From IMG/VR virus record IMGVR_UViG_3300020045_010359, positions 1-60,567 of that record: a stretch of 60,567 nt of DNA, one strand, 5' to 3'. Position numbers and translations under genes: made by a program. This DNA is from a virus. Lineage: Duplodnaviria > Caudoviricetes. How positions within the stretch are numbered: the first letter of the stretch is position 1; every line of letters begins with the position of its first letter. The notes below the pieces were generated by a model, which was given only the letters and a program-made list of their open reading frames with translations, made no database searches and was not told where the DNA came from. Positions 5,843-35,000 of this stretch are shown here, in pieces.

Positions 5843-5862
5843 CCCCTCGTCCTGTTTAAAAA

Positions 5863-7911: not shown

Positions 7912-7927
7912 GATATTTAAAATTAGA

Positions 7928-7958
7928 TAACGGACATGTTTATACGACACATCCGTTA
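7928..7958 (-). terminator. Hairpin after major capsid gene
   Basis: Minus strand TAACGGATGTGT-loop-ACATGTCCGTTA (two G-U pairs); weak U tail. Confidence 0.5.
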
Positions 7959-7966
7959 GTTATTTT

Positions 7967-9912: not shown

Positions 9913-9947
9913 TTCCCCTCTATCTACTACACGTTTCTCTACAAAAG

Positions 9948-9978
9948 CAAATATAATGTAAAAAATATATATTGCAAA
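9948..9978 (-). promoter_or_regulatory. Bacteroidota-type primary-sigma promoter for head operon
   Basis: Minus strand TTTG-19 nt-TATATTTG matches the -33/-7 TTTG/TAnnTTTG consensus. Confidence 0.7.
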
Positions 9979-10045
9979 TTTTATATAGTAATTATTATTT
10001 ATATTGTCGATTAAGGCGCAAAATAGGTTAAAATATATTGACTTT

Positions 10046-10079
10046 TTTGTGTAGTATTTCGAAAGTTTTTGTATGTTTG
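10046..10079 (+). promoter_or_regulatory. Divergent Bacteroidota-type promoter for KilA-N cassette
   Basis: TATGTTTG at 10072-10079 with TTTG 22 nt upstream (slightly long spacer). Confidence 0.5.
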
Positions 10080-10091
10080 TGGGGTAGATAG

Positions 10092-10186
10092 TGGTGTGGA
10101 CGAAGTGAGGTTCATCGACACCATTCAATGAATGGAAATTCATGAAAAGCCGGATCAACCTCACTTGATTCGGCTTTTCTGTTTTT
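10092..10186 (+). ncRNA. Structured 5' leader: two hairpins with complementary loops, the second terminator-like
   Basis: TGGTGTGGACGAA-GTGAGG-TTCATCGACACCA and GAAAAGCCGGATCAA-CCTCAC-TTGATTCGGCTTTTC followed by TGTTTTT. Confidence 0.55.
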
Positions 10187-10197
10187 AACACTTCATC

Positions 10198-10920
10198 ATG
10201 AAAACAAACATCACATTAGCCAGTTCAAGCCGCGAACTATTCGGAGTAACAATTCGGCAGGAAACTAAAACCGGATTTTTAAATCTTTCAGACTTGATAT
10301 TGGCAGAAGCAAAAGGGAGGTCAATTTACGGATGGTCTCATAAAGGTCAATTGCAAGATATAGTAAACCAGAAGGAGAATTCGGAAAGGATATATTATGT
10401 ACTTCATGAGACAGGAAAGATAAATTCAGACTTCTCTGAATTTATGAAAAATGTACATTCCAACGGAATGATTAAAACTTTAAAAAACATCAATTGCTAC
10501 AGAGCGTCTGGAAGAGCTAACAATAAAACTGTCTGGTGTGACCCTTATTTATGGGTTCTCATTTGCATGGAAACGAATCCCATGCTGTACGGAAAGACAG
10601 TTGTATGGCTAACCGATCGATTGGTATTTAATCGCATTGAGGCAGGTGACTTCTATAAAGAATTATCCCGGTCGATTTCGAAGTTTAAAGATGTGGATTA
10701 CGGAGCCTTGGCGAAAGCATTGAATTACGTCATTTTCGGAAAACATGAAACTGGAATACGCAATACAGGAACGGAAGTTCAATTGAAAGAACTTCGCGAT
10801 CTGGAGTTAAATCTCTCCTTCGCCATTGATTCAGGTTTAATTAAAACGTTTGCCGACCTAATAGAGCACCTTCGCTTACTTTGGAGCAGGAAAAATAATC
10901 CAATCGCTTTAAGAGCTTAA
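10198..10920 (+). CDS. KilA-N domain DNA-binding protein
   Basis: GVTIRQ..TGFLNLSDL and GR....VWCDPY motifs; C-terminal ALNYVIFG...RN..T..QL..L domain. Confidence 0.8.
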   Translation: MKTNITLASSSRELFGVTIRQETKTGFLNLSDLILAEAKGRSIYGWSHKGQLQDIVNQKENSERIYYVLHETGKINSDFSEFMKNVHSNGMIKTLKNINCYRASGRANNKTVWCDPYLWVLICMETNPMLYGKTVVWLTDRLVFNRIEAGDFYKELSRSISKFKDVDYGALAKALNYVIFGKHETGIRNTGTEVQLKELRDLELNLSFAIDSGLIKTFADLIEHLRLLWSRKNNPIALRA

Positions 10921-17426: not shown

Positions 17427-20400
17427 TTATCTATCTTGTAATTCACTCATGTCTTTTTCAGCTCTTGTTTTGAATTTAACAATAGTTGATGTAAAAGGAA
17501 ATGCTTTGAACCATTTTTCATATACTTTATCTAAATCTTCTTCATCAGAAGACCCATCTTTTAAATATTTATAAGAGGCAGCTGTTGCTTTTTTAAAATC
17601 TTTATAAATACTCATTGCTGGTATTAAAGAAGATGTAAATGTGGTAAATACATCAGGGCTTGTATAAAAAATTAAATCATTTTCAACTTGTAATAATTGA
17701 TTAGCAATCATTCGTGGAATACCTTTATCAATTTTGTCATCATCATCGTCATCATAAAAAGATTTTAATAAAACAGCAAGAGCTAACATAACAGCATACA
17801 TTTGTAAATCAGCAATAGTTTTTTTAATATTAGCTTTTTCCATTTCAGATAAGTTTACAGTACTTCTTTTAAATAAAAGAGTGTAAAGTTTATTCATCAT
17901 ATTACCATTTAAATCATTATTATCATCTAACAACCTTTTGATAGTAGTGTATCTTCCTTCAACATCTTGGTCTATAATTTCATTGTGATATTTTTTACCA
18001 AATCTTTGTTCTATACCTTCTGCCATCCAAGATAATCTATATTGCCCAATTAATCTACCTAATACTTTTTGTTTTGCTACAACAGGATTATTTCTATCAA
18101 AGTTACCGTGCATTTGTTTTAAAATAAACTTTAATTTGCTTCTATATTCTGCCATTTTTACTGGATTATCTCCATTCCAAGCTAAGTTTGTTTGTTTATC
18201 AAATAAATCTTCATTCCATGAACCATCTTCTTTAAAAGCACTCCACAGTGATATTTCTTCATTGTTTTTTCCTTTAATTTTATCTTTTAACATTATAGCA
18301 ATAGCACTTGTAGATTTCATAATAAAATCACTACTTTGCATTAAATTGTATGGATTTAATGTTTTAGCTAATTTATTTTCTGTATATCTATTTTTACCAT
18401 ATTTTATATCTATAACATCATGTGTTAAACCAAGTTTTTCTACAACATGAGTGATTTTATTTCCTTGTTCAGTTGTTAATGTACCAAAAGATAAATATTT
18501 TCTTACAGAAGATAAAACTATTTGATTAGCTTTACCAAATTCTTTAAAAGAAAAATTTAAACCACCAGATGCTTCAACATAATTTGTTACTAAACCAAAA
18601 GCAGCATTTGCAAAAGCACTAAAAGGATTATAAGAAAATGTTTTTAAAGCTTGTACAGCAATTACATTATCAAAAAAAGAAGACCATGTAAATCTTTTAC
18701 CACCCAAAGCTCTATATTCATCTATTAAAGTTTCGTAACCTGTTAATTCTTCTTTTTCAAGTTTTGTTAATTTAGTATCTTGACTTTTTAAAAATAAAGT
18801 ATCTCTTTTTTCATTATTCTTTTTAATAAGTTTAACCAATTCTTTTGCTCTTTCTTTTTTAGAAGAAGTTATTCCAATTAAATCAGACGTAGAAAATATG
18901 TCATCTTCAAAATCTTTATTAGCTTTATGTTGACCTTCAACATCTTTATATTTACCATATAAAACAGCATCTATTGTATATTTGAATCTTTTCTTTAAAT
19001 TGACGGGGTCTTCAAATGTACCATTTGTTTTTAATGATTTTGATTTATCAACAATACTTTTTGCTAATTGTACTTCTAAATTAATATCAGACATAAATTT
19101 ATAATGACTTGCCATTGCTAAAAATACTTCAAAAGATTTATTTGGGTCAATAGAATAAGATGTTAAAAGTTCTTCAAGTCTTACGTTTAATGATTTTACT
19201 TCTGCAACTGTTAAGTTGTTTGTTTTTTCATTTTTGCTTAATTTATCTTGAATTTTTTTAATTTCTCTATCTATATCTCTTAATTTTTCAATTGGTACAG
19301 TATTTAATTCTTGACCATTTTCATCTAATTCACCTATATAATTATGTTCAAAATCAGTAGTAAAAGAATTAACAACATTTGAATTTATTTTATTTAAAAA
19401 TCCTTTAAATCCACTATTTTGAAATGTGGCTAATAAATCAGCTTTTGCTCTATAAAAATAATTACTTGAAGTTGCATTTTCTTTTGAATAATCAGGAAGA
19501 ATATTTTTTAAATCATTCATGCTTGTTTTTAAAAACATAAAGTATTCTTTTAAATTTTCATCTTTCATAATATTTTCATAATCTGAATTATAATAACCTG
19601 TATCTTTTTTAGTATTTTTATTAAATTTTCTTGGAATATTAACTACATATTCACTACTAAAAACATCAGAATCTGCTATTTTATATTGTGTTTTATAAGT
19701 GTCAGAAGAACCGTGCATCATTCCATAAAAAATATCAGGAGAATTATTAATCATCCATTGATTTTTATTTTTTTCTTTTTCTTCTGTTGTTAAATTTTCA
19801 GTATCTAACCAATCTTCATACTCTTGTTTTAATTGAATATATTCATTGTATTTTAATTCTGCTTTTTTTAAAGCTTCTTCTACAATTGAAATATCACCAA
19901 TAGCATTTATTAATTCGTCTTTTAATGCTTGTTTTTTTGATTCTGAGCCAATAAAATATTGTGGGTCTATACTTATAGTATTTGCATTATACCATTCCTT
20001 TAATTCTCTTTTTGCGCGTCTTATTTCAACAGCATTATTTTTTTCTTTTGCTATTTTTAAATTATTTTGCAAATCTTTTCTGTCATCATAAAATTTATGG
20101 TCATACTTATCTATTAATCTATTTCTTAAAATATTACCAAATTTATCTTTTGCAAATATTTTTGATGCTTTTGCTAATTTACTTTTATAATCAGAACCAA
20201 GTTTGTTGAACAATTCATTTATTTTTTTTAATTGTTTGTCAATAAACAAATCTCTTTCTTGTGTTTTTACATTTATAAGTTTTGCAACATACTGAATATA
20301 TGGATTGACATCATCTGTTAAATCTAATGTTAAACCTTCTCTCATAGAAGCTTCTTGCAAATATAATAAATCTTCCATTTTAACAGAAACACCATGTGAT

Positions 20401-20933
20401 TGTGCTAATTCTAAAGCTTTTTCTTTTAATTTAATATCATACATTCTTTGTAAAGTTTGAGCTTCTACTTCAATAGCAATATCATCTTCTGTTGTAGATT
20501 CCATTAACTCAGTAAATTTATTATAAGCACCTAACATTTGATGATATGATAATAATTCTTGTTCATTTAAATTAGGAGAATTTAATTTAGCTCTTATGTT
20601 TTTTAAATGTTCTTTTGCAATTGTATAAACAGCATCAAGTTCATTTTTTTTAGCTAAAACTTTACCATTTTTTAACAATTGTTCTATTTTTAATTTTTCT
20701 TCATTTAAACTAAAAGTATTATATTTACCTGTTTTTAAATATTCATCTATTTTTTTGAGCCTTTGATTAAGAAGGTGCTCAATTTTTTTAAAACCAGACA
20801 TTGCTGAATAAGATAATTCTTTATGAGAAGTTTCATTTACTCCTAAATATACTTTTAGAGCAGTTTCGGAATTACCTAACTGCTCTAAAAGTTCTGTATA
20901 AATTGGGTCATTTATTTTTATTTCACAAGCCAT
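17427..20933 (-). CDS. Giant virion cargo protein (last of the crAss-like RNAP cluster)
   Basis: 1168 aa helical protein, MAC start, GRLIGQYR..W and EGRY motifs, hydrophobic segment followed by DDDDDD near the C-terminus. Confidence 0.7.
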   Translation of the reverse strand: MACEIKINDPIYTELLEQLGNSETALKVYLGVNETSHKELSYSAMSGFKKIEHLLNQRLKKIDEYLKTGKYNTFSLNEEKLKIEQLLKNGKVLAKKNELDAVYTIAKEHLKNIRAKLNSPNLNEQELLSYHQMLGAYNKFTELMESTTEDDIAIEVEAQTLQRMYDIKLKEKALELAQSHGVSVKMEDLLYLQEASMREGLTLDLTDDVNPYIQYVAKLINVKTQERDLFIDKQLKKINELFNKLGSDYKSKLAKASKIFAKDKFGNILRNRLIDKYDHKFYDDRKDLQNNLKIAKEKNNAVEIRRAKRELKEWYNANTISIDPQYFIGSESKKQALKDELINAIGDISIVEEALKKAELKYNEYIQLKQEYEDWLDTENLTTEEKEKNKNQWMINNSPDIFYGMMHGSSDTYKTQYKIADSDVFSSEYVVNIPRKFNKNTKKDTGYYNSDYENIMKDENLKEYFMFLKTSMNDLKNILPDYSKENATSSNYFYRAKADLLATFQNSGFKGFLNKINSNVVNSFTTDFEHNYIGELDENGQELNTVPIEKLRDIDREIKKIQDKLSKNEKTNNLTVAEVKSLNVRLEELLTSYSIDPNKSFEVFLAMASHYKFMSDINLEVQLAKSIVDKSKSLKTNGTFEDPVNLKKRFKYTIDAVLYGKYKDVEGQHKANKDFEDDIFSTSDLIGITSSKKERAKELVKLIKKNNEKRDTLFLKSQDTKLTKLEKEELTGYETLIDEYRALGGKRFTWSSFFDNVIAVQALKTFSYNPFSAFANAAFGLVTNYVEASGGLNFSFKEFGKANQIVLSSVRKYLSFGTLTTEQGNKITHVVEKLGLTHDVIDIKYGKNRYTENKLAKTLNPYNLMQSSDFIMKSTSAIAIMLKDKIKGKNNEEISLWSAFKEDGSWNEDLFDKQTNLAWNGDNPVKMAEYRSKLKFILKQMHGNFDRNNPVVAKQKVLGRLIGQYRLSWMAEGIEQRFGKKYHNEIIDQDVEGRYTTIKRLLDDNNDLNGNMMNKLYTLLFKRSTVNLSEMEKANIKKTIADLQMYAVMLALAVLLKSFYDDDDDDKIDKGIPRMIANQLLQVENDLIFYTSPDVFTTFTSSLIPAMSIYKDFKKATAASYKYLKDGSSDEEDLDKVYEKWFKAFPFTSTIVKFKTRAEKDMSELQDR

Positions 20934-21337
20934 TATGATAAGTTTTTAAGTTTATACAATGTACTTGCGTATAATTCAATAATATCATCAATAATTTGTT
21001 GTAAATAACCATCTGTTAATTTACTTCTTGTTTGCTCTGATAAAGTTATTTTTTCAGAAAGATACAAACACATATCTTTCCCCTCGTTTATTTTAATATC
21101 ACCATAACCTTTTACAATTCCATATTTACCTTGATAAGATTCAATAAATCTATCTCTTAAATCAACAATATCAGAGTATAAAGAATTTAAAGCCATGTGT
21201 TGAGCATAACTTTTAGTTTGTAAATGTGCAATATGCGCAACAACTTCTACTTCAAAAAGTGAATTTAAAAATGGTATTAAACTATTGCTGTTTTTATTTT
21301 TTAAAACAGAATCTATTATGTCTTTTGTTTCTAACAT
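20933..21337 (-). CDS. Ferritin/Dps-like protein (DUF5856-like)
   Basis: HIAHLQTKSYAQHMAL..LY...D.FIESYQGKYG and TLYKL motifs. Confidence 0.75.
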   Translation of the reverse strand: MLETKDIIDSVLKNKNSNSLIPFLNSLFEVEVVAHIAHLQTKSYAQHMALNSLYSDIVDLRDRFIESYQGKYGIVKGYGDIKINEGKDMCLYLSEKITLSEQTRSKLTDGYLQQIIDDIIELYASTLYKLKNLS

Positions 21338-24300
21338 TTTGTTTCTATTGTTTTATTAAGTTTTAATTTAGTGAAAGCTAATCTTTCAGACGGTGTTAAA
21401 GATTTTAAAAAATCATCAAGTGATGATTTTAATTTAATTGAATCATTTGCTGTTTGAGATATAGAAAGTTCTTCTTTTTTATTTTCAGCAACAATAAAAT
21501 TATCACCAGTTTGTTTTTGTGTATAAATTACTAAAGTATCAGTGGGTCTTGAAAAAGCAACATAACGCATTTGATTTGCTTCATAAGCAAAGAAATCACC
21601 ATTTTCATCAACAGTTAATCGTTTATCTTCTTTATAAGAAATATTTTCTTCATCAACCATAACATGTTTGTAAGTGCTTCCTTGTGCTTTATGTGTTGTT
21701 ATTGCATAACCATAACCAATATTTCCAGAAATAGAAGTTATAGCATTACTTTCTAAAGCTTTATCAATCGCTGCTATCAATTGTTCATTAGTTTCTGTTT
21801 TACCTTGTGCTTTTAAAGAATTTCGTCTTGCTGCCATCAAACCTTTATAATCAGTAACATGTTTATTTGATTCAATTCTATATAAAACATTTGGCACAAC
21901 AATTCCCATTTTTTCAATTTCTTGTAAAAATTTATTTGGTTCGCTTGCAAATTGAAACTTTTTATCTATTTTATTTTTTTCTAAAAAAACATTGAACAGT
22001 TTTTGAGCAAACTCTTTGTTTTCATTTTTAGAAATATCTACCCATCTTACAAATTTTGTTTGTGCATATTCATCTGGTTTGTCTTGAACTTCAACTGCTT
22101 CGACACCATAGCTTAAAAATTGTATTTTTTCTTGTCTAACAGCTTTTCCATTTTCAAAAACAGGGAAATTTATCAAACCTTCTTTTTCAATTGGGTCATT
22201 TAAAACAATATAATCTTGACTATTTTGAATAGGTGTTTCTGTTGCTGACATACCCCAATTCAAATCACCCATTAAAATTTCTCCTTTTAACAAAGGTTTA
22301 TCAGCTTCTTCTTTATATAAACGAGTTCTAATTTGATTATTATACATATCTACTGTGTTATTTCCATATGCAATTAATTTTACCAAACCTTTTTCGTTAT
22401 CTGTTTTATATAAACTTCTATAATACATAAAAGCATCAACTAATCTTTGTTTTGAATCAACAATTTTTACATGTTCTGTATTCCCATATTGAACAATACC
22501 ACCTTTTAAATCTTTTAAATTACTTCTTACTGTATTTGTTAATAATGCAATAGCTGTGTCATCATCAAATCTTTTTACTTCTGTTAATTCATAAGAATTA
22601 CTTGTTCTTTTATTAAAATAATCACTAAGTTTATTTGCACGGGCATTTAATTGTTTAGAAAAAACAGTATTTCCAATAGGGGGCAATTGACCTTTATCAC
22701 CCATTACAACTTTAAATACTCCAGATTCTGGTGGATATATGTTATTTAAAGAATCAAAATCATATTTATTAATCGTGGATATTTCATCAAGAGCTATTAC
22801 TGTTGGTAAAACTTTTTGCCCCATTTTAGCTTTTGCTAACGCTGATGCAACTGTTATATAGTTACCAGTTCTACCATTTACCATATTAGAAGCAACTTTC
22901 CCAGCTTTATGCGTTGGTGTCATAATTACTAAACCTTTGTTATAAGGACTTCTTTTGTTTATATATTCTTTAATAATTTTTATAACAGTACTTTTACCTG
23001 TATTATGTGTAACAGTAAAATCTTCTAATATAAATAAATTATCACCATCTAATGCAAAACCATAATATTTATCAACAATATCTTTTTCAATTTTAATACC
23101 AGTATGTCTAAGATTTTTTATTTGAGTTCTTAATTCGTTTTGTTTTCTTTTTATTTTACAAGGAATTAATCTGTCAACAGTTATAGATAATCTATAATAA
23201 AAATATTTTTCTTTTTTAAATTTTGAATTAGTAATTGTTTTTATACTGTTTGTAACTTTAAAACCTAAACTTCTACAAAGATATGTAATTTGTTCAGCTA
23301 ATAATTTATGTTTCGAACAAATTTCATAAGTCTTACCTTTTTTACAATAATAACCATCCGAATCAAATAAACCAGCTAAAAGATTCAATCTATCTTCAAT
23401 TGATGAATATAAATATTCATCTGGTATATATTTTTCTTCTAATTTAGTAGAATTTTGAATATTGTATATTTTTTTAAACGCGTCGGTTAATTCTTTATTT
23501 TTATTGTGAATAGTATAGGTTATATTATTTTCATTAGTTATACCTATTTCTTTTAAATATTGAATTATTTCAATATCAATATTGGTTATTTTTCTTATAG
23601 ACTCAGTATGACCATCACCCAACCACAAACCAAGATAATAAGGATTTATTAAAAGTTCTTTTTTAGTAAATTCAATAGCTTCACATTGATAACCTTTTCC
23701 TTGTTTCTTTAACGTGTTTCCTTTTGATAAATTTAAGTAATCTATTAATTTAATATTTTTTACTTTAACTGTTTTTCTATCAGAATTTACTTCTTTTAAT
23801 GATAAAATGTGTTGTTCATTTACTCTATAAGAAGCTCCTTTAACTTGATGTACCCAATACATTTGTTCAATTCCTCTTTTTAAATCTAAAACAGTTCTTG
23901 GCGTAGAATCAACTCCCATTAATAAATCTCCAATTTTTACATCTTGAACTTCTTTAAATTTACCATCAAACATTAAAACTTTTGTTCCATAACCAAGGCA
24001 GCCTGCACGTCCCAATAATCTAAACTCATTATCTCCTTTTTTATTTAAAAAATTATCATAAGCATTGGCTACTTCTTGTAATGCTTCTTTTTGACCAGTT
24101 GTTAATTCAATACTTATTTTTTTACCATTTTTAGTAGCTGTTGTTTCTAATTCTACACCGTTAATGTTAATAGTATTAAATTTTTCTAAATTAAGAATTT
24201 GAGAATCTGTTATTACTTGTTTTTCAATTGCTTTTGTTTCAACATTTCTAAAATTTTTACCATTTTGTGGGTCAACATCTGGATTATTATTATAAGCATT

Positions 24301-27300
24301 TAATATTTTATTTTCATCAATTTGTTTACCTTTGTAATTTTCTACTTCAATAGCTTTACCATTTTTTATTTTAATTGTATAATTTGCTCCAAAATATTTA
24401 AACGTATCTGAAGTATAAACATTTTCAACATTTGTAAGTAAAGCATCATTATCTCTTACTTCATATTCTTTTGGTAAAACAACATTGTTTGGAATAAAAT
24501 CTTGAAGTTGTATAAATAAATTTTTTATTTCACCAACAGTATAGCCAGCTAAAGAACTTCCTAATTTTGTAACTAAAAACTTTTTATCAGAATTTTCTCT
24601 TGCAAAATGTAACATTTCACGCAAACCATTTTCAATTTCTCCTAATGTAGAAGACTTTTCTTTTCTCCAATCTTTTTTAGTTATAACTGCATATGATTGA
24701 CCTTGCAAACCTTCTGCTTGTCCTTGTTTTGCACCAAATTTTTCTTTAGCTAAAAGAGCTGCGCCTTTTCCATGAGCACCTTCTGCATTACTTCCAAATA
24801 CAAATATTTCATTTGGTTTTAAAGAAGTAATATTATCTGGAGTAAATTCATTTGGTTGTCTTTTTGTTGATTCTATTTTAATATTTGTTTTATTTTTATC
24901 TTCTGATAATACTAAAATATTACCAATAGCATTTTCTAAAACAGAACCTTCATTTATAGATGTAATATTATAACTTTTTGCGATAGCTTTTAATAATTTA
25001 GTAAGTAAAGCACTAAACCTATCAAAAAAGGATTTATCACCACTATATTTAATTTTGTTTATAAACTTTTGAAATTCTGGTTTAGTCATTGCACCAGTAA
25101 TGAACTCATGTGAATCTGTTAAACAATAATAAATATTTACATCTGTTGAACTATATCTTGTAGGAGCATCACTTTTATAATTTTTTAAATAATTCAAATA
25201 ACCTTCATAATTTATAACGTTACCATCTATGTTTACAGTTCCAATTTCTTTTAATTTCTCTATTACAACATCTTTTAATTTATTAAGATTTTCAATTGCT
25301 TTAGCTTCTTCTTTTGTTACAGATGTATTATCTTTTTCCCATTTGTCAATTTTATCAGAAGTTACAACATGTAAAAGTTCATGCAACAAAGTCTTTTGTA
25401 ATTGTTGTTCGGCTGTTATATTTAGTACATCAGCTGCTATTGTAATTTTTTCAATATTGGTTGAAATAATTTTTTGTGCAGGCAAAGCTTCTGCTTGTGC
25501 GTTTAATTTGTTATTATTACCAATTTTTGTTTGTTTCGCTTCTGGTATTTCACTTAATAGTTCTGCAATAATTTTATGGTCATCTGAACCAAATGTTTTT
25601 ATTAAAGATAAAGAAGTTTGTAGTGCTTCATTTGAAAATTTACCATCTTGAATATTATATTTATCAAGTAATTTTTCTTGTTCAGTGTTGTTGTTTTCTT
25701 TTTCAATTTCTTCTTTTATAATTTCTGGTTCAATAGTTTTTTGAGTTTCAATATAACGAGTATTATTTTCATTAATTATTGAAGGTTTATTATCCCAAAA
25801 ATTAAGATTAGCATTATATTCAGTTATACCAAGTTTATCAGTACCAAGAGTAGGTATTACATTATATACATAATCAACAGCTGCTCCATTTGAATTAATA
25901 TATAATTGATATAAAACAGGTTCAAACATTTTAGATTTAGGATTCATAACATATTTATAAATGAATAATGGAGGTAAAGTTAGTCCATTGAAATTTAAAA
26001 GATTTCTTTGCTCTTCTTTTAAATAATTTGTTCTTGATATTTTTTGAATATTTGAATCTTTTACATCAAAAGTTTTACTTCCTCCCGTAATAAATTCATC
26101 AGTTACTTTTAATGCTTTATAAGGATTGTTTTGAATAAATTGTTTTAAAAAACTTAATTCAATACCAGAATTGTTTAATTCATCATATAAAGATTCATTA
26201 ATACTTCTTAAATTTTCAGAGAATTTATTGTTTAAAAGTATTGATGCTGGAATATATTTTAAAAAGTTTTTAGCATTTTGTGTACCACTTGTTAAATAAG
26301 AATATTTAATTAAATCAACAGCAAAATCTTTTGTATCTTCATTTAATAAAAGTTCAGCAAAACCTCTTGTATTTTCAGCATCATCATATTCTAATGATAT
26401 TGCTGCGTTATATACAACCATTTTAATACCTTCTTCATTTTTCACACCCAATCTTTTTAAGAAATAATTATTTTTATACTGTTTTTTAAGTTTCAATAAT
26501 CTTTCACTTAATGAATTTTCACCTTTTAAAAGCCTTTCTTGTTCACTCTGAACATTACTAATTAAATCTAAATCTTTAGATGTAAAAATAAAAGCTTTAA
26601 ATTCATTTAATAACAGCCTTTGTTCACTTTCAGAAATATCATTCAATGAATTTAGTCCTTTTATACCAGCATACAATTCAAAAATGTTTTGAATAACTGG
26701 AGAATTATATACATATAAATCAGAAAACAAATTAGAAGCTAATTTAATAGAATTATTAGTAGCAGAACCAAGTTCAGTTCCATTTGTTAAACTATCAATA
26801 CCATCAATTTGAATCATTTCATCTGAATTTAATAAAGGAGAAGTATATATTGAGTTTGCTTCAATTCTATTAAATCTTTGCGCTTTTATATTTGCACTAA
26901 TTAAAGATTTTCCCACACCTTTACTATCCGAATTTGTAGATGTCATAACATCTCTCATTGAATTTCCAAGTTCTTCTAACTTTAAAAAGAATTTTAAAAT
27001 GTCAACTTGGTGCATATAATAAGCTTTTGAATTAGTTTCTTTTAAATTTAATTTAATATTCAACAAATCAGTTTCAGAAGGAAGAACATACGTTTCATCA
27101 AATTTAAAATTAGAAATAATTCCTGCTAATTTACTATATTTTTCAATAAGACCTTTGACCATATTTTCTTTTTTATAAGGGTCAAATTCTTCTATTGTTC
27201 TATCATTTAAAAGTTCCATAGATTTAACATACTCTTCAACTATTTCTTGCTTTAAAATAAAAGCAACAGTGTTATTATTAGCTACATTTAATTCAGTTTT

Positions 27301-30300
27301 AGTTGAATCTTCAAGCATTAATAAAGCATTTGCAACAGCAAAAGTAGTATTATTTAAATTAATTTTACCTAATATACCTGATTTAGCATTATCAACAGAT
27401 TCAGACTGTAAATTTTGAATATTTAAAGCTTTATTTCTTTCATAAGTACCTGTTATATTACCAACTTTGTCATAAACATTAAAAATAGTATGCCCAACAC
27501 CTTTTAAATTTTTATTATCACTAAAAGCATTTAAAGATATAATTTGACCTTTTGAGTTTCTTATATTTAAAAAAAAGGGTACAGGATTACCATCTTTATC
27601 AGATTTCATTAACTCAATTTTTCTACCTTGTAAAATAGAATTATATGTAGAAGCTAATGACTCTGCGCCAACACCATCTTTACCTGACCTATTTTCAAAT
27701 TGGGCTTGTTTATTAAATTCAGCAGAAATTAAACTTCTTACTTTTTTATCTTCTGTATTTATTACTTTAGCAGCATCTGCTAAATCTTGAACATCTAATG
27801 GTGCTAAAATTTTATTAGTCATATCAGAATGTGTTAAAACAGAAAAATGTAAATCTATATAATCATTTTGAAGCTGTTTCATTGAACCATGACCTTCATT
27901 ATATTTTTCTAATTTTCCATTATTTAATAAACGCGTATTAAATTGATAAGTATAAAGTTTATCAACGTCATTATCGCAACCCATTTGAATAGTTAATTCA
28001 GAAGGATATATAACAACATCACCCATATATGGTGGTAAAAAACCAACTACTTCCAAAGGAATCATTGAGTTGTGTCCTTGATTAGGAATCCTTGCACCAA
28101 CCAATTTAAATAATTCTGGGTCAATATCTTCTATTTTAATGTTTTGTCCTAATTTCAAAGCTTTACCATTATTGTCTTTATAATTAAACGGAATTAGAAC
28201 TTGTGCTGATATTACTTTACCATCTTTTTGCGTAATAGTTTGTAAACCTTTTGTTTTATCAAAATTTGAACTGTTTGTAAAAGTAATATCACTATTATTT
28301 AAGTCATAATCTTCATTAAATATCCAAGATTGATTAGAACTTTGCACATAAGATTTTCCTGGCATTTTATTTAATACAATTTTACTAACAACAGATGTTA
28401 ACAATGATTCAAATTTGTTACTTGAATTATTAAAAAATAATGGTATTTCAAATTCATCACCTTGTTCTGTTAATTTTAAACTATAAATATCATTTAAAGG
28501 AAATCCTCTTGAATAAGCTTCTTCTAAAATCATATCTTTAATTTTAGATAACTTATTAAATTTTAATTTATTTCCTATTTGTACACCTTCTTTATCAAAA
28601 ATAGGTTCTTCTGATACTTTTAATTTTTCAAAAAGTTCTTGTTTACCTATTTCAAACATTTGTTTTCTTAAATCTTCTTTTTTATTACGAACTTCTTCAC
28701 CTGTCAAAGTTTCATCTTTAAATACAAAACCTTCCATGTTTAAAATACCTTCTGTAATAAGTTTATTCATTTGACTTATTGTAACAATTTTAGCTTTATT
28801 TTCATCATAAGGTACTTCTTGTTGTATTCTAAAACCTTCTCTATTTAAAGTAATTGATTTTAAATCAAAATCATCAAGCAATTTTCCATTATCATCATAT
28901 ATTTTATTCATATTAAAACCGCCAACTTTAACAGCAGTTTCAAAAGCAAATCTTTGAATACCAAGTTTTGCCATTTTTTCTTGTATTTTCTTTAACTCTG
29001 TACCTTCTAATAATTGAGGAACTAATGGGATTGAAGAGGATTTAACATAAACTTTTGACACAAAATTACCAACAGTATAATTAACTACTTGAACTGGTTT
29101 TTGCGGTTGCATTATTACAGTTAGCTCTTCTTGAGATAAACGATTTGTATTATTTACACCATTTTGCTCTTGATTATGTAATTTTGTTTTCAAAGTAATA
29201 TAAATATCATCTTCAACTTGACCTTTTGCAAATAAAGTATCTAAATGTTCAGTAGCAAGTGTCCATTCTTGAGCGTCAGTACCTTTAATTTCAGAATAAG
29301 CTTTCTTTAAAACAGGATTAGAATTGATATACTCATTAGCTGATGCTAAAACAACGTCTTTTACAATTGCAATTTTATAATTTTTTTGCATTTTAAAAGA
29401 TTTACTTTCTATATCCCAAAGCATCCAATGAGGTTCATTTCCTGGTGCTATATCTTTTGCATTACGTTTGATTACTTCAACAGCAGTAGCGTCTTCATTT
29501 TTTTTAAAAGCCCAAGCAGGGTCGCCACCTATAACTCTATAATATTCACCAGCAACTAACATTTGATAATATTCAACTTCTAATGCTGCTTGTAAATATG
29601 CTTGAGTTACTTCTCCTTTATTAGCAGTTATAGTCTTTTTATTATTTTTATAAGTAGTAGAAAAAGCTTTAAATTTATTTTTTTGCATCCATTGAGAATC
29701 TAAAAATATTTTTTCACCATTTGTTATATCATTTTCATTTGGTACAATTGATAGATTTCTCCAAATATTCAATCTTTCATAAACTTGTTTACCCAATGTT
29801 ACATCGACAATTGATTTAATTAAATCATCAGTGGGCAAATCATTGTTGTTAGCAAATATAGAATCTATTTCTTCTACTGAATAACCTTGTATATCACCAT
29901 TAACAATTGCTTCTTTTAATTTATTTTTATTTAACAAAGGAAAAAATAAAAATAATTGAGAGCCTGTTTTAAAATTAGAAGGTAAAGATTTTTCATTTTC
30001 AATTAAATATCTTGCTTCTTGTATTCTTTTTCTTTCAGCAAAAGCAAGTTCATATAATTTCTCCATTCCACTATCTGAAATTAAAGAATTATTAACAGCT
30101 AATTTAACTTCTGGAACTCTTAAAGAAGGACATGTTGTTTTATCTGAAATTGTAGGTAATCTAACAATTCTTTTTTTATTTCCTTTGTTTAAAATTTCAG
30201 CAAGAACATGTAATTCATATTCTTTTTCAGTTGCTTTAATTGGGTCTGTACCTGTGTCATCACCTCTTTTCTTTAAACCTTCTCTATATTCTAAGTTAAT

Positions 30301-32040
30301 ATTGTTTTCTTTTAAATTTTTAAGTAACCAACAATCATTACCATTAGAATCTTTTACAAAAAAATAATTATTTAATTCTGGAGCTTCTCCATTTTTAATT
30401 TTATCAATTTCTTTTTCTAACATTTTATATTGAGAATAAGCATAAACAGTATCTCCATTTACATTTTTATGACTATCACTAAATGATTCTGGGTTATGCT
30501 CTAAATATAATTTTACCAATGTTGATTTAATATCATTAGCGACAGAATTTTCACCAACAAAAGGATTGTTTATTTCATCATCATTTTCTTCTGTATTTTT
30601 AAATTTAGAAAACATTTGATTAAAGAAAGAATTTTCATCTAATGTAACACTTAAATAAGTTCTAATTTTTTTTACTTCTTTTGGTACATATTTTGAATAT
30701 ATTTTTTCTTGTCCTTTTACTGAACTAAGCAAATCTAAAACTTGTTCTTTAGTTAATTCAATACCAATTTCATTGAATAATAATGATAATGCTGCACTTT
30801 TTGCACTATTATCTTTTAGTTTAGTTATTTCAGTGTATTGTTGATAAATCCCATTTGTTTCAACTTTACCAAGAGAATAATATTTACTATTTTTGAAATT
30901 TTCATACCATGTATCAATTACAATTTGTTCTGCACTGTTTCTATTAGAATTAGTTGGTGTTAAATCATAACCTCCTTTTTTACCTTTATTAAACAAAGTT
31001 AAATTAAAACGATTGTGTATTTTTTTAATATTTGTAAATAACTCATTTTTTCTTGCTTGAGAATAGTCATTTTCAATAGCATATTCTAAAGCTTCTAACC
31101 ACGGCATTTCTTTTTTATAATCTTCAAGAACATCTTTATAATTTTCTTGATTTAAATTTGGTGTGTTTGAAAAAATACGAAGTAATTGAGTATAAGCAGT
31201 ATCAATGTTTATAAATTTAGGAACACCATAAATAGTAAATTCTGGTTGAAATTCATCATTTACAAAAGTACCTTGCTCGATAGTAGCAAGTTTCATTTTT
31301 AAATTATTTGAAGCAGTAGATTTTGGGTCAACAGTAAATGAACTATCAGCCCATTGATTTTCTTTAATTTTACCAGCTTCATCTTGATTATCAGTCATTG
31401 AAATATCTTCATCATCAAAATAATCAATTGCTCTATTTTTAAATTTAAAACCCATTGCTTCTAATTTATCAACAGCAAGTTTTTCTAATTTAGACCAATT
31501 TTCTGGTAATAAAACATCTTCAATTTGTTTTTTAGATTCTTCTGTTTCTTGATATTGAACTAAATCAGTAAATTCTTTTTTAGCATGTGCAAAAGCTTTT
31601 TCTACATCAATTTTTTTATTTAAATTTATTTTATTTAAATTAAAATAATCCATTAAATAAAATACAATACTTTCTGTTGCTTCTTTTGCTTTTTCTTGTG
31701 ATACAACTGAATTAGAATCTAATGTAACAGCTTTTATTTGCTTTATAAGCTTGCTTCTTTCTTTTTCTGCATTCTCTGCTGATTCAATAGGTAATTCTTG
31801 CTTACGAACAAAATTTAACACACTATCTATATGAGGTTCACCTGTAAGATAAGTGTTTAATAGTTTAGTTTTTGATTTTATCCAATTACCAAAACTTAAT
31901 AAAAATTCAGATGAAGTTGCAACTCTATAAATAGAATCAGCAACTTCATTTGTTTTAAATTTTTTATATAAATCAGACCATAATCTTGATTGAGTATTTT
32001 TACCAGTTAATGGTGATTTAATTATTTTACATTGTGCCAT
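21331..32040 (-). CDS. Virion RNA polymerase polyprotein: crAss-type single-chain RNAP + zincin + A1S_2505-like domain + intein-containing Dda/RecD SF1 helicase
   Basis: TDAQ, QPQKP, YVKSS, ARIPNQGHNSM, GCDNDVDKLY (27961-27975); HELLH (~25370); IFVFGSN.EG.HG.GAA; GRAG|TGKS, DEIS, GD..QLPP, HKAQGSTY, YVAFSR. Start likely ATG 32040 (TAATG overlap). Confidence 0.9.
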   Translation of the reverse strand: MAQCKIIKSPLTGKNTQSRLWSDLYKKFKTNEVADSIYRVATSSEFLLSFGNWIKSKTKLLNTYLTGEPHIDSVLNFVRKQELPIESAENAEKERSKLIKQIKAVTLDSNSVVSQEKAKEATESIVFYLMDYFNLNKINLNKKIDVEKAFAHAKKEFTDLVQYQETEESKKQIEDVLLPENWSKLEKLAVDKLEAMGFKFKNRAIDYFDDEDISMTDNQDEAGKIKENQWADSSFTVDPKSTASNNLKMKLATIEQGTFVNDEFQPEFTIYGVPKFINIDTAYTQLLRIFSNTPNLNQENYKDVLEDYKKEMPWLEALEYAIENDYSQARKNELFTNIKKIHNRFNLTLFNKGKKGGYDLTPTNSNRNSAEQIVIDTWYENFKNSKYYSLGKVETNGIYQQYTEITKLKDNSAKSAALSLLFNEIGIELTKEQVLDLLSSVKGQEKIYSKYVPKEVKKIRTYLSVTLDENSFFNQMFSKFKNTEENDDEINNPFVGENSVANDIKSTLVKLYLEHNPESFSDSHKNVNGDTVYAYSQYKMLEKEIDKIKNGEAPELNNYFFVKDSNGNDCWLLKNLKENNINLEYREGLKKRGDDTGTDPIKATEKEYELHVLAEILNKGNKKRIVRLPTISDKTTCPSLRVPEVKLAVNNSLISDSGMEKLYELAFAERKRIQEARYLIENEKSLPSNFKTGSQLFLFFPLLNKNKLKEAIVNGDIQGYSVEEIDSIFANNNDLPTDDLIKSIVDVTLGKQVYERLNIWRNLSIVPNENDITNGEKIFLDSQWMQKNKFKAFSTTYKNNKKTITANKGEVTQAYLQAALEVEYYQMLVAGEYYRVIGGDPAWAFKKNEDATAVEVIKRNAKDIAPGNEPHWMLWDIESKSFKMQKNYKIAIVKDVVLASANEYINSNPVLKKAYSEIKGTDAQEWTLATEHLDTLFAKGQVEDDIYITLKTKLHNQEQNGVNNTNRLSQEELTVIMQPQKPVQVVNYTVGNFVSKVYVKSSSIPLVPQLLEGTELKKIQEKMAKLGIQRFAFETAVKVGGFNMNKIYDDNGKLLDDFDLKSITLNREGFRIQQEVPYDENKAKIVTISQMNKLITEGILNMEGFVFKDETLTGEEVRNKKEDLRKQMFEIGKQELFEKLKVSEEPIFDKEGVQIGNKLKFNKLSKIKDMILEEAYSRGFPLNDIYSLKLTEQGDEFEIPLFFNNSSNKFESLLTSVVSKIVLNKMPGKSYVQSSNQSWIFNEDYDLNNSDITFTNSSNFDKTKGLQTITQKDGKVISAQVLIPFNYKDNNGKALKLGQNIKIEDIDPELFKLVGARIPNQGHNSMIPLEVVGFLPPYMGDVVIYPSELTIQMGCDNDVDKLYTYQFNTRLLNNGKLEKYNEGHGSMKQLQNDYIDLHFSVLTHSDMTNKILAPLDVQDLADAAKVINTEDKKVRSLISAEFNKQAQFENRSGKDGVGAESLASTYNSILQGRKIELMKSDKDGNPVPFFLNIRNSKGQIISLNAFSDNKNLKGVGHTIFNVYDKVGNITGTYERNKALNIQNLQSESVDNAKSGILGKINLNNTTFAVANALLMLEDSTKTELNVANNNTVAFILKQEIVEEYVKSMELLNDRTIEEFDPYKKENMVKGLIEKYSKLAGIISNFKFDETYVLPSETDLLNIKLNLKETNSKAYYMHQVDILKFFLKLEELGNSMRDVMTSTNSDSKGVGKSLISANIKAQRFNRIEANSIYTSPLLNSDEMIQIDGIDSLTNGTELGSATNNSIKLASNLFSDLYVYNSPVIQNIFELYAGIKGLNSLNDISESEQRLLLNEFKAFIFTSKDLDLISNVQSEQERLLKGENSLSERLLKLKKQYKNNYFLKRLGVKNEEGIKMVVYNAAISLEYDDAENTRGFAELLLNEDTKDFAVDLIKYSYLTSGTQNAKNFLKYIPASILLNNKFSENLRSINESLYDELNNSGIELSFLKQFIQNNPYKALKVTDEFITGGSKTFDVKDSNIQKISRTNYLKEEQRNLLNFNGLTLPPLFIYKYVMNPKSKMFEPVLYQLYINSNGAAVDYVYNVIPTLGTDKLGITEYNANLNFWDNKPSIINENNTRYIETQKTIEPEIIKEEIEKENNNTEQEKLLDKYNIQDGKFSNEALQTSLSLIKTFGSDDHKIIAELLSEIPEAKQTKIGNNNKLNAQAEALPAQKIISTNIEKITIAADVLNITAEQQLQKTLLHELLHVVTSDKIDKWEKDNTSVTKEEAKAIENLNKLKDVVIEKLKEIGTVNIDGNVINYEGYLNYLKNYKSDAPTRYSSTDVNIYYCLTDSHEFITGAMTKPEFQKFINKIKYSGDKSFFDRFSALLTKLLKAIAKSYNITSINEGSVLENAIGNILVLSEDKNKTNIKIESTKRQPNEFTPDNITSLKPNEIFVFGSNAEGAHGKGAALLAKEKFGAKQGQAEGLQGQSYAVITKKDWRKEKSSTLGEIENGLREMLHFARENSDKKFLVTKLGSSLAGYTVGEIKNLFIQLQDFIPNNVVLPKEYEVRDNDALLTNVENVYTSDTFKYFGANYTIKIKNGKAIEVENYKGKQIDENKILNAYNNNPDVDPQNGKNFRNVETKAIEKQVITDSQILNLEKFNTININGVELETTATKNGKKISIELTTGQKEALQEVANAYDNFLNKKGDNEFRLLGRAGCLGYGTKVLMFDGKFKEVQDVKIGDLLMGVDSTPRTVLDLKRGIEQMYWVHQVKGASYRVNEQHILSLKEVNSDRKTVKVKNIKLIDYLNLSKGNTLKKQGKGYQCEAIEFTKKELLINPYYLGLWLGDGHTESIRKITNIDIEIIQYLKEIGITNENNITYTIHNKNKELTDAFKKIYNIQNSTKLEEKYIPDEYLYSSIEDRLNLLAGLFDSDGYYCKKGKTYEICSKHKLLAEQITYLCRSLGFKVTNSIKTITNSKFKKEKYFYYRLSITVDRLIPCKIKRKQNELRTQIKNLRHTGIKIEKDIVDKYYGFALDGDNLFILEDFTVTHNTGKSTVIKIIKEYINKRSPYNKGLVIMTPTHKAGKVASNMVNGRTGNYITVASALAKAKMGQKVLPTVIALDEISTINKYDFDSLNNIYPPESGVFKVVMGDKGQLPPIGNTVFSKQLNARANKLSDYFNKRTSNSYELTEVKRFDDDTAIALLTNTVRSNLKDLKGGIVQYGNTEHVKIVDSKQRLVDAFMYYRSLYKTDNEKGLVKLIAYGNNTVDMYNNQIRTRLYKEEADKPLLKGEILMGDLNWGMSATETPIQNSQDYIVLNDPIEKEGLINFPVFENGKAVRQEKIQFLSYGVEAVEVQDKPDEYAQTKFVRWVDISKNENKEFAQKLFNVFLEKNKIDKKFQFASEPNKFLQEIEKMGIVVPNVLYRIESNKHVTDYKGLMAARRNSLKAQGKTETNEQLIAAIDKALESNAITSISGNIGYGYAITTHKAQGSTYKHVMVDEENISYKEDKRLTVDENGDFFAYEANQMRYVAFSRPTDTLVIYTQKQTGDNFIVAENKKEELSISQTANDSIKLKSSLDDFLKSLTPSERLAFTKLKLNKTIETKC
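23002..24000 (-). mobile_element. Intein with LAGLIDADG homing endonuclease (333 aa)
   Basis: Starts CLGYGTKV, block B VNEQHIL, LGLWLGDG and LAGLFDSDG, ends VTHN with +1 Thr; splicing restores GRAGTGKS. Confidence 0.93.
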
Positions 32041-35000
32041 TAGCAATCTCCGTCTTTTAATTGTATTTGATTATTGTTAGTATAAGAAATACTAAGTTCT
32101 TTTTTAAATTTATTTTTAAATCTATCCATCATTGGATTTTTAATGGTTGTTTGTTGAGTTTCAGTATTTTCGACAGGTGTTGTTTTTGATTCGTTAGATA
32201 CATTTGTTGTTGTTTTTATATCAGGTTTACCCCAAGTTATTTCTCCTTTTTTTACTAATTTCCATTGTCCATCTTTCTTTTCATATATTGCAGGCGTCAC
32301 ATTTGTAATTTTATCTTTTGTTCTTGCGTTTAAAGATTTGAAAACTGGAAAAATATATAAATCTGGGTAGTTAAAAGCATCAACATTTGTGCTATCATTT
32401 GAAATAAATTCAACAAATGCTTTATTTTCATTAATAACATTTATTTTAAATAGTGCACCAAAACTTTCTTTTGATGAAACAGAGTTTTTTGAAAAATCAC
32501 CATTAGGTTGTGGGGTTGAACCAAATTCAACAAATTTTGTTTTTATATTTTCAACAGGTCTTGTTTCATCTAAAATTATATTTGTTTCTTCTGTTTCTAA
32601 AGGAGTATCTTTTGTATCTAATTTTTCAACAGCTATTTTTGCTCTTTCAATATCCTCTATTGCTTGTTGTGAAAAACTTTCAGTGTTGTTTATTTTATTC
32701 AGTTCTTCAAGTGGAACAATATGCAGTTCAACATGCTCGTTTTGATATTTTATACTATTTTTAATAGCATATTCTTTAGAAAAACTTTGTCCTGTTGCTA
32801 TATCTTCTACTTTTTCTCTAAATAATTCAACGGCATCTTTTCCACCTTTTGTTTTTACAAAATTTCCTTTTTTCCAATTTGTTGTTTCTTCATTTCCATA
32901 TAAATTCCATTTTACAAAATTATTATCTTCAAATTTTTTATTTTCTTCAATTTTTTCAACTTTATGCTTAAAAACAGAATTGTAATTTATTTGAAAAACA
33001 GGTTGTTCAATATAAACATATTCATCTTCTACTTTATTTTTACCGTTTACATTAGTAATTATTCTACCTTTTACATGTTCAGTATAATTTACTTTTTGTT
33101 CATTAAATATTTCAAAGTCTTCTTCTCCAACAACAACTTTTGGTATTTCAGTTTTAACATTTGAATCTTCTAATAATTGTTCATTACCAACTGTAATTTC
33201 AACTGTTTGTCTTTTACTTTTAATGTATTCTTCTAATACTTGAAAAGCTTGAGCTAAACCTACTGTTTTTAATAAACCATTATATTCAGAACTATTTACA
33301 TTATTTATCTGCAAACCTTGTTTTTTAGCTAAATCTTTCAAAGCCATTTGTGCATCTTGAATACTACGAATATATAAAATTGCATCTACATTATTACCAG
33401 TAACTTCATCTTTTTTAAAAATTACACCAGGAATCATAACTTGTATTGCTTTTTTGTTATCTTCTGTTGAAGAATCATCTGCAAAATCTACAAATATTTT
33501 TCCTCTATTTATTTTATTCCCATTTTCATCAAGTAGTTTTATAGAACTCATGTTTGGAATAAATGTACAATAAATAGATAAAAACTTTTTTAAATCTGAA
33601 ACCTTATTTAATCTCAATGTTGTATTTTTTATTTTAACAGTTTTACCATCATCTGTTTTTTTAGACATTAAAAAATCTCTAATTGTTTGAAAAAATAAAG
33701 AATGTTGTTCTTCTGATGTTTTTTTAGATATAATAGGAACAGCTACACTTCTTTCAGTACCATCTGCTTGATTTCTCATTGGTACTAATAAAACTGGCGT
33801 GCCCGCAATAGCAGACAATGCTTCTTTTTTATTCATAACTTCATCTTTTGCTAAAGTATCAGCAGATACATATAAACTTCCATCATTTCCTACGACTGCA
33901 AATTTAATATCGTTGCTTGGTAATAATTTAGCAGCTTCATCGTATGTAGTTTCACCTTTGACAAGATTCCAACTTATTTTTCCAGGATTAATACTTTCTA
34001 TTGTAACATCATATTGAATGTTTTTATCTTGTTCAAAATTTGTTAAAAGTTGTTTTCTCAATTTTACATTTTCAGCAAATGATTTTACTATGTCTTCAAA
34101 ACTTTCTCCAGCAGAATTTCTAAATACTTCTGTACTATTGTAATTTTCTTTGAAATATTTTACAATTTCTGCATTTTTATTTTGCAAAGCTAAATCTACA
34201 AACATATTAATTTGCTCGTTTGTTAAAATATCAATACCGTTTTTATCTTTTATTTCTAATATCCATTTGGGAGTATGTAAAAATGTAGTTGTATTTTCGT
34301 CAATAACTATTTTTATTGGAAAATCTAATTGTGCTAATTTATTTTCATCATTTGAATATTGATGAAACAAATCATTTTCATAATCAACACTCAATTTAAC
34401 ATCAGATAAACCACTGAATTTTTCATTAGACAAAAAGAAATGATTATTATTAATAGTGTTTAATTTTGTTGTTGTTATTTTACCATTTTTTTCTGTATAT
34501 TCATGTGTTAAAATAGCTAATGAACTTTCTGGGCTTGTGTTTTTTAAATGTTCATAATCAACAGCAGATTTAATATTACTAAAAACTTCATCTAATTCTT
34601 TTGGTGTAACTGGTGGTTGGTCAGCTAAATCTGTTTTAAATGTTTTTTCAGCAGTTTGTTTTTTAAAATCAAGATAAGTTGTACTAATTTGATTTGCAGT
34701 TATACCTCCACCAAAAGAAGCATTTAAAATTGAAGTTAACATGTTATATTCAACTTCATTTAATTTACCAATCTCTGCTACTTTTTTAAGTATAGTTTCA
34801 GACAAATCTTTTCTTGCTATTTGTGGATTTTTCTTTCTAAGTATTTCAGCCATTTTAATTACAATAGGCTTTACTTTACTTGTAAGCTCTTCAAATTTAG
34901 AAAATTCATCTTCTTCTACATTTAATTCTTTTCTTCCTTGTAATAAACTTGCAACATCAGCAGCTAATAAATCTAATTCATCATCTTCTGTTGTTTGTGT

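Follow-up and report, generated by a model that had tools for sequence, protein, structure and literature searches.

Crassviruses are the most abundant phages of the human gut, and the packing and ejection of their RNA polymerase (RNAP) cargo of about 700 kDa is an open question in the passages of the structural papers used here (PMC10172136, PMC13434306). In the phages phi14:2 and crAss001, this cargo is encoded as a set of three proteins, here called A (gp67 and gp47), RNAP (gp66 and gp50) and C (gp65 and gp49). According to the main text of PMC10172136, the three proteins are virion cargo in crAss001 and appear as separate species in virion mass spectrometry, cargo proteins must partly unfold to pass constrictions narrower than 50 Å, and crAss001 virions contain inter-subunit disulfides in tail and portal-vertex proteins. 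The physical presence of the module proteins in virions is known for crAss001 and phi14:2 only (main text of PMC10172136; record notes). The phi14:2 preprint describes fused polyproteins as 'likely cleaved', and the terms cysteine, disulfide and Cys do not occur in it. The main text of Bayfield 2023 (PMC10172136), supplements excluded, does not contain the word 'cysteine', and its disulfide passages concern tail and portal-vertex proteins. A full-text literature search, which did not cover the final Nature version of the phi14:2 study, subscription papers or supplements, found no description of terminal cysteines (Cys) in these proteins. We analysed such a module in IMG/VR virus record IMGVR_UViG_3300020045_010359 (Caudoviricetes), the whole stretch of 60,567 nucleotides (nt) being called the window below, and found that the facing ends of consecutive module proteins carry paired Cys residues.

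The crAss-type RNAP module sits in a part of the window with 25% guanine-cytosine (GC) content. All of its genes are on the minus strand, and positions are those of the whole stretch:

32040..37826 (protein 32043..37826), minus strand: gene A, 1928 amino acids (aa), first protein of the proposed RNAP cargo chain, matching phrog_32390.
32043..32045, minus strand: codon of A Cys1928, donor side of junction 1.
21331..32040 (protein 21334..32040), minus strand: gene of the giant RNAP protein, 3569 aa, comprising the RNAP core, a zincin-type motif (HExxH), a phrog_2072 region and a Dda-like helicase that an intein interrupts.
32029..32031, minus strand: codon of RNAP Cys4, acceptor side of junction 1.
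21334..21453, minus strand: C-terminal connector module of RNAP (...SLDDFLKSLTPSERLAFTKLKLNKTIETKC), ending in Cys3569 (codon 21334-21336).
20933..21337 (protein 20936..21337), minus strand: DUF5856 (Dps/ferritin-like, Pfam) gene, 134 aa, inserted between RNAP and C.
17427..20933 (protein 17430..20933), minus strand: gene C, 1168 aa, last protein of the proposed chain, all-helical in its predicted model.

The order A-RNAP-C, with homologs of gp67/gp47 as A and of gp65/gp49 as C, is that of phi14:2 and crAss001. Using jackhmmer, we found that A is homologous to crAss001 gp47 and to an 'RNAP subunit' of cr111_1. C gave a tblastn match to a cr111_1 'RNAP subunit'; a simple homolog search with C returned C itself only, and an exhaustive HMMER search supplied 923 relatives. 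The C domain also occurs at the C-terminal end of fused RNAP proteins.

A contains two Cys, residues 1420 and 1928, the second being its last residue (...LKDGDC), and its N-terminal end (MAKEKLK...) contains none. The giant RNAP protein starts with MAQC (Cys4) and ends with ...IETKC, where Cys3569 is the last residue. C starts with MAC, its sole Cys being Cys3 (codon 20925-20927), and ends with ...SELQDR, which is free of Cys. The single Cys of the DUF5856 protein is internal (residue 90), so that this protein, having no terminal Cys, falls outside the chain. An earlier note on this DNA had read the same termini (A ...DGDC, RNAP MAQC and ...ETKC, C MAC), had described the outer ends, the start of A and the end of C, as Cys-free and had held that the pattern skips the ferritin-like gene; the window translations bear out each of these points. 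A, RNAP and C together contain 15 Cys in 6665 residues (0.225%), and the other open reading frames (ORFs) in the 25%-GC part of the window contain 78 in 5730 (1.36%). The joint probability of the four terminal Cys arising by chance, calculated for a Cys in the last 3 residues of A, at positions 2-5 and in the last 3 residues of RNAP, and at positions 2-5 of C, was about 4e-9 at the module frequency (0.225%) and about 1e-6 at 1% Cys.

The tabulation of terminal residues that the earlier note had proposed was carried out on 10 named phages: cr111_1, crAss001 and phi14:2 (Steigviridae), crAssphage, crAss002 and cr3_1 (Intestiviridae), cr4_1 and cr55_1 (Suoliviridae), cr127_1 (Crevaviridae) and FpV4 (Fipvunavirus). 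The results showed that the pattern is conserved, with Cys on both sides at 13/13 split junctions, the Cys of the upstream protein falling within its last 0-8 residues and that of the downstream protein at positions 3-5. In phi14:2, gp67 ends with ...NTIC, gp66 starts with MAC... and ends with ...QECK, gp65 starts with MSC..., and only 4 Cys are present in 5398 residues. In crAss001, gp47 ends with ...LRCNS, gp50 starts with MSKRC... and ends with ...KICGANTLYEL, and gp49 starts with MAKKC...; gp47 lies on the opposite strand to gp50 and gp49, and the facing Cys ends still match. Cys pairs are also present in crAssphage and crAss002, where the module genes are 130-170 nt apart. These gaps and the opposite-strand genes of crAss001 therefore indicate a feature at the protein level and not a by-product of stop/start overlap. 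Fused forms follow the same rule. In FpV4, A and RNAP form one fused 4287-aa protein whose only Cys is residue 4286, and the protein after it starts with MAC; in crAssphage, where RNAP is fused with C, gp45 ends with ...SFSCM, and gp44 starts with MSC and has no C-terminal Cys.

Two gene models of the named phages deserve comment. The match at crAss002 gp33 requires a start re-called 33 codons downstream, where an in-frame Met (locus L004, 16788-16886) gives MSCTPSN..., like the MSC start of crAssphage gp44; the annotated start of gp33 is probably 33 codons too far upstream. The module genes of cr4_1 (locus L087, 3980-22868) contain 38 and 18 in-frame stops under table 11, so a stop codon appears to be read as a residue in these late genes, and the terminal Cys pair is still there (...MLNCKGK, then MIC...).

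For a larger sample, 80 IMG/VR loci were gathered with an alignment, A3, which was needed as a related-locus search with the window RNAP core alone gave no relative. Plus-strand ORFs were called mechanically from the first ATG, and a junction was defined as an adjacent ORF pair, each of at least 450 aa, with a gap of at most 600 nt. Among 153 junctions, Cys was found on both sides of 84, on neither side of 68, on the downstream side only in 1 (locus L021) and on the upstream side only in 0 (Fisher p 2.4e-43). The Cys-free junctions lie nearly all between small upstream cargo proteins, or between these and A, and the chain is therefore confined to A-RNAP-C. In the 84 paired junctions, the upstream protein carries its Cys 0, 1 or 2 residues from the end in 77 cases and the downstream protein at position 3, 4 or 5 in 82; overall, the offsets vary from 0 to 14 residues from the C-terminal end and from position 3 to 6 at the N-terminal end. 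Facing Cys thus co-vary across genomes, and they persist where genes are inverted (crAss001) or inserted (the window and locus L011). In L011 (14895-16392), small ORFs of 152 and 204 aa stand between the RNAP end (...KTCKY) and C (MILSC...), which parallels the DUF5856 insert of the window; the 204-aa ORF presumably resembles a GIY-YIG/T5orf172-type protein.

The number of Cys also follows the number of pieces. The 65 complete chains (355,715 residues) contain 134 junction Cys and 66 other Cys (0.019%), compared with 1.32% Cys in other ORFs of the same loci, a depletion of about 70-fold outside the junctions. Exactly 2(n-1) Cys, n being the number of pieces, were found in 12/14 one-piece, 18/35 two-piece and 10/16 three-piece chains, so that 12 of the 14 fully fused chains have no Cys at all. 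In locus L069 (10-20131), a further split divides the C protein, and a Cys pair (...KSIC, then MLSC...) is present at this additional junction too; the four pieces of the chain (1371, 3977, 655 and 699+ aa), which is incomplete at both locus ends, contain three Cys pairs and no further Cys.

Split and fused proteins were further compared in a pool of 266 homologs, consisting of the best 120 of 587 RNAP-core relatives, 15 A relatives (query included) and the best 150 of 923 C relatives. Each of the 14 A homologs contains a single Cys, which is within the last 3 residues. Among the 162 RNAP-core proteins, a Cys is present in the 13 C-terminal residues of 0/119 with a fused C domain, against 40/43 of the unfused ones. 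A-domain detection by phmmer/jackhmmer was too weak (6 matches), and length before the core was therefore taken as the proxy for a fused A. By this proxy, which misfiles some proteins with enlarged N-terminal regions, and with 6 truncated proteins set aside, a Cys is found in the first 8 residues of 82/90 proteins with 700-1949 residues before the core against 5/66 with at least 1950; at least 2 of these 5 (P0080 and P0170) carry the N-terminal APNG motif and so are probably unfused with enlarged N-terminal regions. Among 89 stand-alone C relatives, an N-terminal Cys is present in 58 and absent from 31, 21 of the latter being shorter than 1000 aa or lacking a Met start.

We found that the terminal Cys residues belong to short conserved modules. 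The last 30-45 residues of unfused RNAP ends follow the pattern S/T-V-x-x-F/Y-M-K-x-L-x-x-x-E-R-x-x-L/F-R-x-L/M-I/V-x4-I-x-F/T-K/R-C-x, of which SLDDFLKSLTPSERLAFTKLKLNKTIETKC is the window version. This tail module occurs only at the C-terminal ends of split forms, and the alignment of fused proteins stops short of it. C3569 is invariant in 19 sequences, all of them chosen for having the tail module. The N-terminal ends of RNAP and C consist of M-x(1-4)-C followed by a short motif, for example C-x3-5-APNG-x2-S-x-L-Y or C-P-N-x-x-S-x-E-W; these motifs are restricted to N-terminal ends and are not retained internally in fused forms. When the RNAP N-terminal ends of six distant phages were aligned, the Cys was one of just two invariant columns. 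An AlphaFold2 model of C (mean predicted local distance difference test score, pLDDT, 83.8; predicted template modelling score 0.83) is all-helical, with residues 1-9 as coil, residues 1-3 below pLDDT 50 and a low-confidence loop at 32-40. A Foldseek search of this model against the PDB gave no match at E <= 0.001 (best E 0.03, template modelling score below 0.1), and C, judged from its model, is without a solved relative. The predicted complex of RNAP 3420-3569 with C 1-330 scored 0.09 against a mark of 0.32, in a run without controls, and is used neither for nor against contact.

What the sequences show directly is that terminal Cys are present or missing in pairs, that Cys is depleted elsewhere and that the Cys-bearing ends have modules of their own; in our judgement, the facing Cys very probably contact each other. 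The earlier note had proposed that terminal Cys pairs, by disulfide or metal, chain the cargo for ordered packaging or ejection. Its chain A-RNAP-C with pairing across the junctions has strong support from the comparison (84 both, 68 neither and 1 discordant of 153), and the choices between disulfide and metal and between packaging and ejection are matters of likelihood. The explanation that we consider probable is that head-to-tail inter-chain disulfides make the proteins into one linear, threadable and redox-cleavable chain. For the chemistry of the bond, the timing of its formation, threading and reductive release, we infer the following course from sequence. The short terminal connector peptides would dock and juxtapose both thiols, the upstream connector being a conserved, putatively helical tail ending ...I-x-F/T-K/R-C and the downstream one a small N-terminal module starting M-x(1-4)-C. 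Within the particle, the thiols would oxidise, so that the C-terminal Cys of one protein would be bonded to the Cys found at positions 3-6 of its successor, an inter-chain disulfide being the most likely form of this bond. The resulting pseudo-polypeptide would be linear and unbranched, about 6,600 residues long, and would be for split genes what the single fused giants are in related phages. An end-to-end bond would give an unbranched strand that can be threaded like one polypeptide, and with the links at the extreme ends and nearly all other Cys purged, it could travel unfolded, as one strand, through portal and tail, with every protein drawing its successor along. The reducing host cytoplasm would then open the links and free the subunits.

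We lean, by a small degree, towards extending this to crAss-like phages in general (Crassvirales and their Flavobacteriia-infecting relatives), which would concatenate their ejected proteins into a linear chain of >600 kDa by terminal disulfides, a redox-cleavable substitute for the peptide bond. If this is true, it accounts for the fixed exit order and 1:1:1 ratio of three giant proteins, for proteins that are nearly Cys-free except at their ends, and for the occurrence of both fused and split modules among the phages at no evident cost; Cys pairs and peptide bonds would be interchangeable, making gene fission and fusion in the module selectively near-neutral. It also offers an annotation rule, in which an M-x(1-4)-C start and a ...C-x(0-3) end mark the true gene boundaries in the module, and missing Cys pairs flag frameshifts, recoded stops or introns.

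Several observations weigh against the disulfide chain. Three of the 43 unfused RNAP ends have no C-terminal Cys (P0013, with 225 residues after the core, P0060 and P0093), 10 full-length (at least 1000 aa) Met-start stand-alone C relatives have no N-terminal Cys, and some chains contain a few extra Cys. In the discordant L021 (3674-27531), C starts with MQHC, and the sole Cys of the upstream 5419-aa protein lies 397 residues from its end; a 584-aa Cys-free ORF stands between the two. In L080 (1533-14533), a 2044-aa ORF and the RNAP ORF, 243 nt apart, are split with no Cys on either side, possibly as a broken fusion. The independent contrasts for Cys against split state are modest. A FastTree phylogeny of RNAP cores with 69 rows implied at least 13 changes between the split and the fused state at junction 1 and at least 9 at junction 2. 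On supported branches, junction 1 gave 8 pairs, about 6 changing the same way, 0 the opposite way and about 2 unchanged (p about 0.03). The 3 pairs available for junction 2, of which about 2.8 agreed in direction and 0 were opposed, are too few (p 0.25). The kinship-corrected test is therefore much weaker than the raw counts; its ORF-structure classes are also crude, L020, L069, L080, L012, L016, L042 and L048 being misfiled or ambiguous. As disulfides are unlikely to form in a reducing cytoplasm, the links could serve co-packaging only if the proteins had docked non-covalently beforehand. If the fused giants are cleaved, as the phi14:2 preprint guesses, their parts would work unlinked. Finally, the bond itself is read from sequence, and a sequence looks the same whether the two Cys form a disulfide, share a metal or are merely close to each other.

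A metal bridge would keep the facing Cys together through a shared metal (two-coordinate Cu(I), or Zn/Fe with further ligands) or through other thiol chemistry. The paired presence and absence of Cys suits any Cys-Cys junction, a Dps/ferritin-like gene lies at the window junction, and one subclade has a His two residues past the N-terminal Cys (C-S/N-H-L-APNG). However, each end has one conserved Cys and no second conserved ligand, as seen in the tails ...KFKCK, ...ETKC and ...DGDC, the His is clade-specific, and the ferritin-like insert is not general among relatives. We consider a bridge of this kind unlikely.

It is also conceivable that each terminal Cys binds some other partner (capsid, portal, a tail protein or a second copy in a homodimer), in which case the Cys would be anchoring points and not links of a chain. 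Tail proteins of crAss001 form disulfides, as the main text of PMC10172136 describes, and some small upstream cargo proteins have a lone terminal Cys with no obvious partner. These are the 598-aa protein of FpV4 (L002, 8048-9844) and the 486-aa protein of locus L035 (463-1923), both starting with MKKKC, crAssphage gp47, with its sole Cys at 856/857, and crAssphage gp48 and crAss002 gp30, both ending ...RCGG... (for crAssphage, L003, 4679-8167; for crAss002, L004, 6093-7766). Anchoring predicts at least one Cys per polypeptide, yet most fully fused chains (12/14) have none, the number of Cys tracks 2(n-1), and the two sides of a junction are gained and lost together (84 both, 68 neither, 1 discordant). 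These results make anchoring quite unlikely.

Very unlikely, in our view, is that the terminal modules dock by non-covalent contacts only, with the Cys serving the packing of a small fold or acting as a nucleophile or recognition residue in connector trimming, in which the ELS(I/Y)S sites or the zincin domain might take part. The connector peptides are conserved beyond the Cys, an invariant HExxH motif is present within the same RNAP protein, and ELS(I/Y)S adjoins three of the four ends in the window. Against docking alone, the Cys is the sole invariant residue at the N-terminal ends across distant phages, ELS(I/Y)S is not conserved, and Cys elsewhere is purged about 70-fold, so the retention of exactly the junction Cys argues for thiol chemistry. 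ELS[IY]S has exactly 3 occurrences in the six-frame translation of the whole window, all near junction ends:

32085..32099, minus strand: ELSIS in A, residues 1910-1914, 19 residues before the C-terminal Cys.
21457..21471, minus strand: ELSIS in RNAP, residues 3524-3528, 46 residues before the C-terminal Cys.
20805..20819, minus strand: ELSYS in C, residues 39-43, 36 residues after the N-terminal Cys, at the end of the low-confidence loop 32-40.

This placement near three of the four ends is unlikely to have arisen by chance. The motif is absent from the closest A homologs (...KLIISEQ..., ...KIDYSKN...) and from the closest C homolog (P0137), and a faint echo of it was found in a few RNAP tails only, such as EEMSISP in P0039. 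The release sites that the earlier note had seen in ELS(I/Y)S are thus real as a motif in the window and find no support beyond this genome. As a general cleavage site, the motif was rejected, being not conserved among A, C and RNAP relatives; a genome-specific putative protease site for trimming the connectors is possible.

An artefact of gene-junction sequence (overlapping stop/start, translational coupling) or of chance has next to no probability: in the window, the RNAP Cys codon TGT does overlap the ATG of the DUF5856 gene (AAATGTTAG), yet the pattern holds with gaps of 130-170 nt, opposite strands, inserted genes and variable Cys offsets, which refutes gene overlap and coupling, and the window by itself already puts the probability of chance at about 1e-6 or less. 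Other candidates were rejected as well. The Cys at positions 3-6 stands right after Met and 1-4 residues, with no hydrophobic leader or lipobox, which does not fit a lipoprotein. A split intein does not fit either, the Pfam Hint match being found only at 2681-2777 (inside the helicase) and the terminal peptides being short and without His-Asn. Intramolecular cyclisation of RNAP and homodimers were also rejected.

The giant RNAP protein contains further domains:

27907..29322, minus strand: RNAP catalytic core, residues 907-1378, with the motif GCDNDVDK at 1354-1361.
25369..25383, minus strand: HELLH (HExxH) zincin-type motif, residues 2220-2224, invariant in 19 aligned RNAP proteins.
23002..24000, minus strand: intein, residues 2681-3013 (333 residues; Hint and LAGLIDADG), inside the Walker A motif of the helicase.

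The core matches phrog_16227 (E 7e-59) and PDB 6VR4, which is phi14:2 gp66 (E 3.5e-23), and gave tblastn matches to FpV4, phi14:2, crAss001 and crAssphage. The catalytic Asp residues of DxDxD (D1356, D1358 and D1360) are invariant in the 19 aligned RNAP proteins. The window motif (27958-27981, minus strand) reads GCDNDVDK (DNDVD) against GSDFDVDK in relatives, with Cys1355 in place of the usual Ser. The invariance of HELLH in 19 homologs suggests that a metalloprotease may travel within the cargo chain. The intein interrupts the Walker A motif (GRAG|C...THN|TGKST) of the Dda-like helicase, which is fused to the C-terminal part of the RNAP protein; 6 of the 12 RNAP Cys fall inside the intein and would leave with splicing. 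The helicase domain lies near the C-terminal end in the window RNAP and other relatives and near the N-terminal end (about residues 100-550) in some RNAP+C proteins (P0057, P0063, P0066, P0078, P0083, P0104), and it is a mobile accessory domain of the module.

Upstream of the module, a 1301-aa protein matches phrog_15100, 'virion structural protein', and ORFs of 665, 155 and 738 aa are unnamed or weakly matched; the gene order resembles cr111_1, crAss001 and phi14:2. The GC content is 38-45% at 1-10900 of the window against 25% at 12-52 kb, and about 33% at the right end (52-60 kb). In the left part, the genes for a major head protein of the HK97 type (7970-9223) and for a head maturation protease (9202-10191) represent a head module other than the crAss type. 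The window may come from a chimeric contig or from the joining of two distinct phage segments.

The window module shares with phi14:2 gp67/gp66/gp65 and crAss001 gp47/gp50/gp49 the same three-protein set, domain order and terminal Cys, and differs from them in that its RNAP adds a Dda-like helicase with an intein and a DUF5856 gene precedes C. Split inteins likewise join the products of split genes after translation and have Cys at the junction, whereas the connectors of crAss-like phages, at 10-45 residues, have no terminal Hint fold and no terminal His-Asn. In AB-type toxins, two chains stay joined by an inter-chain disulfide while they cross a membrane, and reduction of this bond in the cytosol frees the active chain. 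Those chains come from a nicked precursor and their bond is not end to end, whereas the crAss-like proteins are separately encoded and would be joined tail to head; the comparison implies no homology between the two systems. The tail and portal-vertex disulfides described in the main text of PMC10172136 stabilise a fixed structure of folded subunits in crAss001 and are not at the ends of ejected cargo. Schitoviridae (N4, DEV) also package and eject a giant RNA polymerase, and the ejection proteins of this family show strong Cys suppression, which the relevant passages of PMC11445570 ascribe to passage through the periplasm. The N4/DEV polymerase is a single polypeptide without any Cys, whereas the crAss-like chain is made by 2-4 genes and keeps Cys exactly at the junction ends; the polymerase folds of the two types are described as fundamentally different in the corresponding passages of PMC13434306. 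Inter-chain disulfides and this cargo module are thus already known, and what would be new, as far as we have seen, is the linking of ejected proteins end to end in a way that is interchangeable with gene fusion.

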